Below are positions 22,265 to 23,512 of a stretch of 64,000 bases of DNA, in pieces; positions within the stretch are counted from its first letter, which is position 1, and every line of letters starts with the position of its first letter. The DNA comes from Escherichia phage NHEP36, in sequence record PQ511151.1, one strand, 5' to 3'. The notes under the pieces were generated by a model. That model saw only the letters and a list, made by a program, of their open reading frames with translations, made no database searches and was not told where the DNA came from. Position numbers and translations under genes: made by a program.

Positions 22265-22846
22265 ATGACATGTCAATCTGAACTTCAAGAACGTGAATAC
22301 CTAACAAATCTGATTGATAGCAAATTCACCCGCCAAGAACAAAACATTCTCTGGGCTTGCACCGATTCTAAGGAAGACCCGGATTTCCACTATGAATTAG
22401 ACCATCTTGTTCGTAAGCATATGACTTCTACAGTACCAGTAGAACTCTACCGTGGTGTAACTCCAGAAGAAGTAGAACGTCTTTCCCTTCTTTCTGTTGG
22501 ATGCCATTGGTCTCCTGGACGAGTAACATCGTTCACAACTGATTTCAGTACAGCTCGTCAATTCTCCGGGAGTTGGGAATATCAGACGTACACTATTCTT
22601 AGTCTCAGGAATGCTCCATTCATTTTTGATTACTACCAAAACATGGTTAACATTGTACTTGCCGGAAAGAACCCTAAGCATGTTATGGAAGAAACACGTG
22701 TTGACGTCCTAGATATGATTGAATCTGAACAAGAGTACATGGTCTCAGGTATCTCTAGATTTGAGATCGTGGAAATTGAAGACTTAGAATATGACCCTTT
22801 ATCTCGGTTATACAAAATCATTCATTTAAAAATGTTGAATTTTTAG
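22265..22846 (+). CDS. ADP-ribosyltransferase, ModA/ModB-like (paralog 1)
   Basis: 193 aa; R-S-E triad candidates LYRGV, SFTTDFSTAR, ESEQEYMV; size and locus match T4 modA/modB. Confidence 0.7.
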   Translation: MTCQSELQEREYLTNLIDSKFTRQEQNILWACTDSKEDPDFHYELDHLVRKHMTSTVPVELYRGVTPEEVERLSLLSVGCHWSPGRVTSFTTDFSTARQFSGSWEYQTYTILSLRNAPFIFDYYQNMVNIVLAGKNPKHVMEETRVDVLDMIESEQEYMVSGISRFEIVEIEDLEYDPLSRLYKIIHLKMLNF

Positions 22847-22903
22847 TGTACAATCTCTACCGACGATGATACTATACTTTTATCAACCACAGGAGAAACC
22901 AAA

Positions 22904-23512
22904 ATGTTTATGCCGTATAACGAGTGTGAAATTGAAGAAATGGTTCGTCGTGCTCAATGCCCAGACTATCAGGATGAACTTCAGTACAAAATCGATGAGC
23001 AATTCAGTGACATTGAACAAAGTGTACTGTGGCAATGTATGGAAAACAAGCCAGACAGCATCCAACAAGATTTAAGTGCAATTGTTCGTAGAAATTGGTC
23101 TTCTTCAGTTCCTGAAACAATGTATCGTGGAATCTCTAAGAAAACTATGGCCACACTCGATGATAAAGGCATTGGTAGTATTATTAAATTTGACAGAGTA
23201 ATGAGCTTTAGTCCAGTGTTTGGTGTAGCACGTAACTTTGCTTCGTATAATTTTTACGGAACATTTAATATGTTCTGCATCAAAGATGCACCATTTGCTT
23301 TCAACTTCCGTGAACATATGCTTAATATGATTCTGGCTGCACCATCTTGTGAGTTCAATGGAGCTTTCCCTGAAGCTACAAGACGGTCTAATGCTAGGCT
23401 TATATCTGACGAATGTGAATTTATGCTCCCTATAGGGACTACACTGCGTGTAGATTCTATTATTCAAGATGGACGTTATACAATCTGGAATCTGTCTATT
23501 GTCAGTTACTGA
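22904..23512 (+). CDS. ADP-ribosyltransferase, ModA/ModB-like (paralog 2)
   Basis: 202 aa; MYRGI, SFSPVFGVAR, DECEF (E-x-E). Confidence 0.7.
   Translation: MFMPYNECEIEEMVRRAQCPDYQDELQYKIDEQFSDIEQSVLWQCMENKPDSIQQDLSAIVRRNWSSSVPETMYRGISKKTMATLDDKGIGSIIKFDRVMSFSPVFGVARNFASYNFYGTFNMFCIKDAPFAFNFREHMLNMILAAPSCEFNGAFPEATRRSNARLISDECEFMLPIGTTLRVDSIIQDGRYTIWNLSIVSY

Follow-up and report, generated by a model that had tools for sequence, protein, structure and literature searches.

Predicted ModB- and ModA-type ADP-ribosyltransferase genes with separate putative early promoters in an RB69-like Escherichia phage

Results

Two adjacent open reading frames (ORFs) of Escherichia phage NHEP36, ORF1 (positions 22265 to 22846) and ORF2 (22904 to 23512), are most likely the modB and modA genes of an RB69-like, T4-type phage. 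Positions are those of the window, the whole 64,000-nucleotide stretch of sequence record PQ511151.1 that we analyzed, and both ORFs are on the plus strand. We put the probability at about 0.88 that they are this pair, each predicted to encode a small, single-domain, arginine-specific mono-ADP-ribosyltransferase (ART) of the Arg-Ser-Glu (R-S-ExE) clade and to be expressed early in infection from a sigma-70-type promoter of its own. What we infer is that the proteins are active enzymes, what they modify, and which paralog acts on which target. A first-pass annotation of this DNA, made from the letters alone, had called the genes a tandem ModA/ModB-like pair. Family matches, BLASTP, motif residues, fold, and gene order upheld the ADP-ribosyltransferase pair and refined its order, with modB first and modA second; the target of each protein cannot be read from its sequence. 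The finding itself is an ordinary one, the genes, their names, and their predicted promoters being on record for RB69, in its annotation and in publications dating from 2003 to 2006.

Both ORFs lay exactly where the first-pass annotation had placed them, separated by a gap of 57 bases, and the claim that their products resemble T4 ModA and ModB in being about 200 amino acids long held: ORF1 encodes 193 amino acids and ORF2 202, compared with 200 for T4 ModA (NP_049635) and 207 for T4 ModB (NP_049636). The assignment of ORF1 to the ModB lineage and of ORF2 to the ModA position is drawn from homology, motifs, gene order, and fold models. ORF2 opens with ATG-TTT-ATG, offering possible starts at 22904 and 22910. 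In RB69, ModA is annotated from the second ATG (200 amino acids); many database entries begin at the first (202 amino acids), and both are conserved in RB69. The Shine-Dalgarno sequence read upstream of ORF2, GGAG (22892 to 22895, plus strand), lies 8 nucleotides from the ATG at 22904, a better spacing than the 14 nucleotides that separate it from the ATG at 22910.

The search with hidden Markov models for ART domains that the first-pass annotation had proposed led to the phage ADP-ribosylase family PHROG 832, "RNA polymerase ADP-ribosylase," for both products (E = 6e-38 for ORF1 and 2e-38 for ORF2). The precomputed Pfam assignment PF26816 was present on 33 of 33 database homologs. By BLASTP, ORF1 was 38% identical to T4 ModB (E = 3e-28, 92 bits) and 26% identical to T4 ModA (E = 4e-10, 43 bits), while ORF2 was 35% identical to T4 ModA (E = 1e-20, 72 bits) and 32% identical to T4 ModB (E = 2e-35, 111 bits). 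The two ORFs matched each other at 31% identity (E = 3e-26). At the sequence level, membership of both proteins in the Mod family (T4 ModA/ModB type) of R-S-E clade ADP-ribosyltransferases is supported.

Each product carries all of the candidate R-S-E elements that the first-pass annotation had listed. ORF1 has LYRGV at residues 61 to 65, SFT at 89 to 91, and EQE at 155 to 157; the corresponding elements of ORF2 are MYRGI (73 to 77), SFS (101 to 103), and ECE (170 to 172). The candidate catalytic residues of ORF1 are R63 (22451 to 22453), S89 (22529 to 22531), E155 (22727 to 22729), and E157 (22733 to 22735), and those of ORF2 are R75 (23126 to 23128), S101 (23204 to 23206), E170 (23411 to 23413), and E172 (23417 to 23419), all on the plus strand. 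In an alignment of 35 homologous sequences, the R, the G, the S, the F, and both E positions were invariant (R63, G64, S89, F90, E155, and E157 in ORF1; R75, G76, S101, F102, E170, and E172 in ORF2), which argues that these are not chance matches. The R-S-ExE columns line up with R73-G74, S99, and E171/E173 of T4 ModB and with R72, S96, and E163/E165 of T4 ModA. In T4 ModB, the R73A/G74A substitutions abolish both ADP-ribosylation and RNAylation, the attachment of RNA chains to proteins (PMC10468400), and E173 is reported to be essential (bioRxiv 10.1101/2025.07.11.664405); T4 ModA with E165A is inactive (PMC11404850).

AlphaFold2 modeled the two proteins with confidence (mean predicted local distance difference test scores of 88.7 and 94.2). 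In Foldseek searches against viral models, the phage ModB/ModA models ranked first, with template-modeling (TM) scores of about 0.85, and both of our models also matched ART-fold structures. The motif residues fall in the models where this fold would have them, with the Arg on a strand, the Ser on a strand that is followed by a helix, and the ExE at the entry to a strand. An ADP-ribosyltransferase fold is therefore predicted for both ORF1 and ORF2, and the lack of any ART-fold hit, which the first-pass annotation had named among the grounds for giving up its proposal, was not what we saw. Compared by sequence with solved structures, neither the single sequences nor a 35-sequence profile gave a significant match. 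Matches to nucleophosmin, Cas9, and ArdA (E values of 0.01 to 0.6) were set aside as noise. The best structure match of the profile, XopAI (E = 0.14), aligned the ExE region of a real ADP-ribosyltransferase and was too weak to use.

By its matches, the window is from an RB69-like (Mosigvirus) phage of Escherichia coli, a relative of phage T4, and more than 130 GenBank phages match it at 97 to 99% DNA identity. Megablast with positions 22000 to 23800 matched 162 phage records, 136 of them at at least 95% identity, and nearly all of the latter come from the genus Mosigvirus, the RB69 type, with Escherichia or Shigella as host. Positions 1 to 36499 of RB69, on the reverse strand, are collinear with the whole window at 95.5 to 97.7% identity. 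The RB69 genome record (AY303349) labels the upstream gene modB and the downstream gene modA, the names following gene position. Next to its pair lie modA.2 and RB69ORF020c in one direction and srd, dda.1, and dda in the other. The order modA.2–modB–modA–srd–dda.1–dda is identical in the window, RB69, and T4, and this comparison places our pair in the early region, between modA.2 and srd-dda.1-dda.

RB69 ModB (AAP75921.1) and ModA (AAP75920.1) are the same genes with the same neighbors and the same predicted early promoters, and only point differences separate them from ours. ORF1 differs from RB69 ModB at 2 of 193 residues, and a 100% identical product is found in phage AV118; ORF2 differs from RB69 ModA at 2 of the 200 residues compared, and its 100% identical product is in phage NHEP29. 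Codon changes relative to RB69 were 6 synonymous and 2 nonsynonymous in ORF1 and 18 and 2 in ORF2, a pattern consistent with purifying selection on both genes. Both Mod lineages have been kept across several genera.

The first-pass annotation had also given each gene its own promoter and ribosome-binding site, and both kinds of element stand as predictions that, for RB69, had already been published. Upstream of ORF1, an early-promoter-like element on the plus strand (22209 to 22237) consists of G-TTTACA, a 16-nucleotide spacer with a TG, and TATGAT. It was recovered both with an extended motif and with a generic sigma-70 scan, in which TTTACA-16-TATGAT with its extended TG (22210 to 22237) had 10 of 12 matches. 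A Shine-Dalgarno sequence, GGAGG (22254 to 22258, plus strand), can be read 6 nucleotides before the ORF1 ATG. The element upstream of ORF2 (22846 to 22875, plus strand) consists of GTGTACA, a 17-nucleotide spacer, and TACTAT, and it begins on the final base of the ORF1 stop codon. It was found with the extended motif; the generic sigma-70 scan did not list this site, which has 8 of 12 matches by our count. A third element, GTGTACA-16-TATTAT with a TG (23587 to 23615, plus strand), was found by both methods; it is the early-promoter-like element of srd and marks the end of the expression unit of the mod pair.

The extended motif is phage specific, GTKTACW-N15-17-TANNAT-N4-9-TATC, and usually preceded by an A-rich stretch. 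It occurs seven times in the window, at 16104, 22209, 22846, 23587, 39972, 42470, and 56624, every time on the plus strand and upstream of an ORF, compared with 0.03 occurrences expected from simulated sequence. Three successive copies precede modB, modA, and srd. Upstream of the same three genes in RB69, Nolan et al. (2006) predicted the early promoters Pe:13466, Pe:12829, and Pe:12088, to which the elements at 22209 to 22237, 22846 to 22875, and 23587 to 23615, respectively, are equivalent. In T4, modB and modA overlap by 4 bases, which leaves no room for an intergenic promoter there, whereas the 57-base gap of our pair contains a promoter-like element.

Assignment of the two genes

To place the two genes relative to those of T4, we built a neighbor-joining tree of 11 Mod proteins from seven genera. 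An upstream lineage grouped the upstream protein of the window with that of Dhakavirus and the single Moonvirus gene (bootstrap 85), and a downstream lineage grouped the downstream protein of the window with those of Dhakavirus and Gaprivervirus and the single Karamvirus gene (bootstrap 100). T4 ModA, on a long branch, and T4 ModB were left unplaced, the deep nodes having bootstrap values of 10 to 40. We therefore replaced the tree by scoring the T4 proteins against profiles of the two lineages. T4 ModB scored 158.6 bits with the upstream-lineage profile and 122.8 bits with the downstream one; T4 ModA scored 95.1 bits with the downstream-lineage profile and 78.8 bits with the upstream one. Together with gene order, these scores favor an assignment of upstream ORF1 to the ModB lineage and of downstream ORF2 to the ModA lineage, with T4 ModA evolving fast. 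Assignment to a lineage is no proof that the targets are those of T4.

For ORF1, the likeness to T4 ModB is clear by BLAST. Its best T4 match is ModB rather than ModA, it occupies the upstream position, its R-G, S-F-T, and E-Q-E elements align with those of T4 ModB, and T4 ModB scores better with the upstream-lineage profile. ORF1 falls 14 residues short of T4 ModB and does not have its insertion before the ExE helix or part of its N terminus. ORF2 resembles T4 ModA in lying directly upstream of srd, in its 35% identity over 173 residues, and in the alignment of the R and the ExE; it differs in having S-F-S where T4 ModA has S-A-S and in having its own predicted promoter. Outside T4, BLAST matched T4 ModA best to downstream copies (87, 73, and 72 bits), with upstream copies at 0 to 49 bits.

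Genera of T4-type phages differ in how many Mod genes they carry at this position. Tequatrovirus, Mosigvirus, Dhakavirus, and Gaprivervirus have two, and a single gene is present in Moonvirus, Karamvirus, and Jiaodavirus. That of Moonvirus groups with the upstream copies, that of Karamvirus with the downstream copies, and that of Jiaodavirus with the upstream copy of Gaprivervirus (bootstrap 75). Since both the number of genes and the lineage of the single genes vary, the sequences suggest an old duplication followed by differential loss.

Discussion

T4 ModA ADP-ribosylates Arg265 on both alpha subunits of RNA polymerase, almost exclusively, and T4 ModB transfers ADP-ribose to S1, EF-Tu, and trigger factor and uses RNA capped by nicotinamide adenine dinucleotide (NAD) to RNAylate S1 and L2. 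By analogy, in the pair described here, NAD+ would be held by the strand beta-1 Arg (R63 of ORF1 and R75 of ORF2) together with the strand beta-2 Ser (S89 and S101). Early in infection, the second Glu of the ExE (E157 and E172) would catalyze the addition of ADP-ribose to arginines of host proteins. For the downstream enzyme, the target would be Arg265 on each of the two RNA polymerase alpha subunits, and UP-element- and CRP-dependent promoters would be used less. The upstream enzyme would modify the translation proteins S1, EF-Tu, and trigger factor and might also attach NAD-capped RNA to S1 and L2.

A number of points weigh against this picture. Our literature search, whose silence is not proof of absence, returned no biochemical experiment on the proteins of the window or on RB69-type Mod proteins; it returned no target study for the latter either, in line with the first-pass annotation, which knew of no targets in this phage. 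ORF2 is not the reciprocal best match of T4 ModA, and its best T4 match is ModB (111 versus 72 bits), so that the "ModA" label and the RNA polymerase alpha target rest on position and a modest profile preference. With the deep nodes of the tree as they are, one-to-one orthology, and hence target assignment, is not secure. The copies of Pfam-A and NCBIfam that we searched gave no ART match for either ORF. T4 ModA and ModB likewise have no NCBIfam match, so the NCBIfam null reflects library coverage rather than absence of the domain, and as the homologs carry the newer family PF26816, we did not count either null as contrary evidence. Mutations in T4 ModA and ModB were reportedly studied by Tiemann et al. 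in 2004, and the serines are reportedly S109 of ModA and S111 of ModB. The serine tested in T4 may be that of the S-F-T or one about 12 residues downstream.

The preference of ORF2 for T4 ModB brings up the possibility that both enzymes are active and divide their labor differently from those of T4. The downstream protein might be ModB-like, acting on translation factors or in RNAylation, or targets might be shared or swapped, in which case RNA polymerase alpha would fall to the injected Alt protein or to the upstream protein. The long, unplaced branch of T4 ModA would fit this, as would the separate predicted promoters of our pair in place of the overlapping genes of T4; the one-gene genera imply that a split between two enzymes is not universal. 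T4 ModA nevertheless prefers the downstream-lineage profile, its top BLAST matches outside T4 are downstream copies, and the order of the genes is that of T4, and we consider a different division of labor unlikely.

We regard it as very improbable that one paralog is a catalytically dead pseudoenzyme or a decaying duplicate kept by linkage. Tandem paralogs often lose function, but both retain every invariant residue of the family, including the R, the S, and both Glu residues of the ExE, both are full length with confidently predicted folds, their changes from RB69 are mostly synonymous (6:2 and 18:2), and each lineage is conserved in several genera. The notion that chance motifs occur in unrelated small early proteins that are no ADP-ribosyltransferases could draw on the Pfam-A and NCBIfam nulls and on the want of a significant sequence match to solved structures. 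It is already refuted by the PHROG match (E of about 1e-38), the homology to T4 ModB and ModA, and the ART-fold matches, and T4 ModA and ModB themselves are missed by NCBIfam; we give it next to no credence. A ModB/ModA pair of predicted arginine-specific enzymes is thus the reading that we prefer.

Among ADP-ribosyltransferases at large, the two proteins stand apart in several ways. Their sequence identity to R-S-E clade arginine ADP-ribosyltransferases of known structure (Tre1, 6drh; Vis, 4xzj; C3, 1ojz; VIP2, 1qs1; HopU1, 3u0j; ExoS, 6gn0; and ART2.2, 1gxy) is only 10 to 20%. Compared with the bacterial and eukaryotic R-S-E enzymes, they have a Mod-specific N-terminal helical region of about 55 residues, with invariant E25, Q26, L29, C32, and K36 (ORF1 numbering), and a shorter spacing from the R to the S (26 residues). 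They are phage early proteins rather than secreted toxins.

The recent demonstration that T4 ModB attaches RNA chains to ribosomal proteins makes a comparison with the RB69-type paralogs useful. These are diverged (about 30 to 38% identical to the T4 enzymes), and comparing them could help to reveal the determinants of RNAylation and of target choice. There is a minor chance that the RB69-type pair does not map one-to-one on T4 ModA and ModB, the downstream protein being ModB-like or the targets being split in a way unseen in T4. Were that so, "ModA for RNA polymerase and ModB for the ribosome" would be a lineage-specific arrangement and no general rule for T4-type phages.

Neighboring genes and annotation

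Downstream of the pair, srd (23665 to 24411), dda.1 (24414 to 24725), and dda (24722 to 26035) occupy positions 23665 to 26035 of the plus strand and fix the T4-type gene order. In profile searches, Srd matched PHROG 1400 (E = 1.6e-99), Dda.1 matched the Pfam family Phage_Y01A, and the third neighbor was the Dda helicase. Residues 4 to 157, approximately, of Srd (248 amino acids) also matched PHROGs for phage endonuclease, HNH endonuclease, and endonuclease VII (E = 4e-18 to 4e-11), a hint that Srd may have an HNH or endonuclease-VII-like domain or come from one. The dda.1 ORF encodes 103 amino acids from the ATG at 24414, with Phage_Y01A over residues 4 to 97, and has the length of T4 dda.1 (312 bases); the RB69 dda.1 product is annotated as shorter, at 92 amino acids. 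Two antisense ORFs inside the mod pair, 23105 to 23467 (120 amino acids) and 22397 to 22681 (94 amino acids), had no meaningful family match and were taken as noncoding. Scans of the whole window for tRNAs and with Rfam gave no RNA genes.

Four short RB69 segments are missing from the window, at 15553 to 15592, about 16083, about 20405 to 20408, and 26731 to 26794. They correspond to approximately RB69 positions 20501 to 20894 (RB69ORF041c), 19770 to 19974 (gene 61.4), 15255 to 15447 (between soc and gene 56), and 8370 to 8866 (motB.1 and RB69ORF012c) and, as we read the alignment, amount to minor differences in accessory genes where the region is otherwise collinear. At 21403 to 21867 (plus strand), the window has an intact ORF of 154 amino acids that matches PHROG 1234, "Mrh transcription modulator under heat shock" (E = 5e-49). 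The same stretch of the RB69 reference has an extra A in an A-run (near window position 21570) and is annotated as two short ORFs, mrh and RB69ORF022c, so that the RB69 record probably carries a frameshift, by sequencing error or real mutation.

Several of the records matched by positions 22000 to 23800, such as OR352946 (AV116), MN850579 (mogra), and MZ560701 (TU01), carry the label [quoted passage not shown] in this region. The label is probably an annotation error, in which a phage gene named modA was perhaps confused with bacterial ModA, the molybdate-binding protein.

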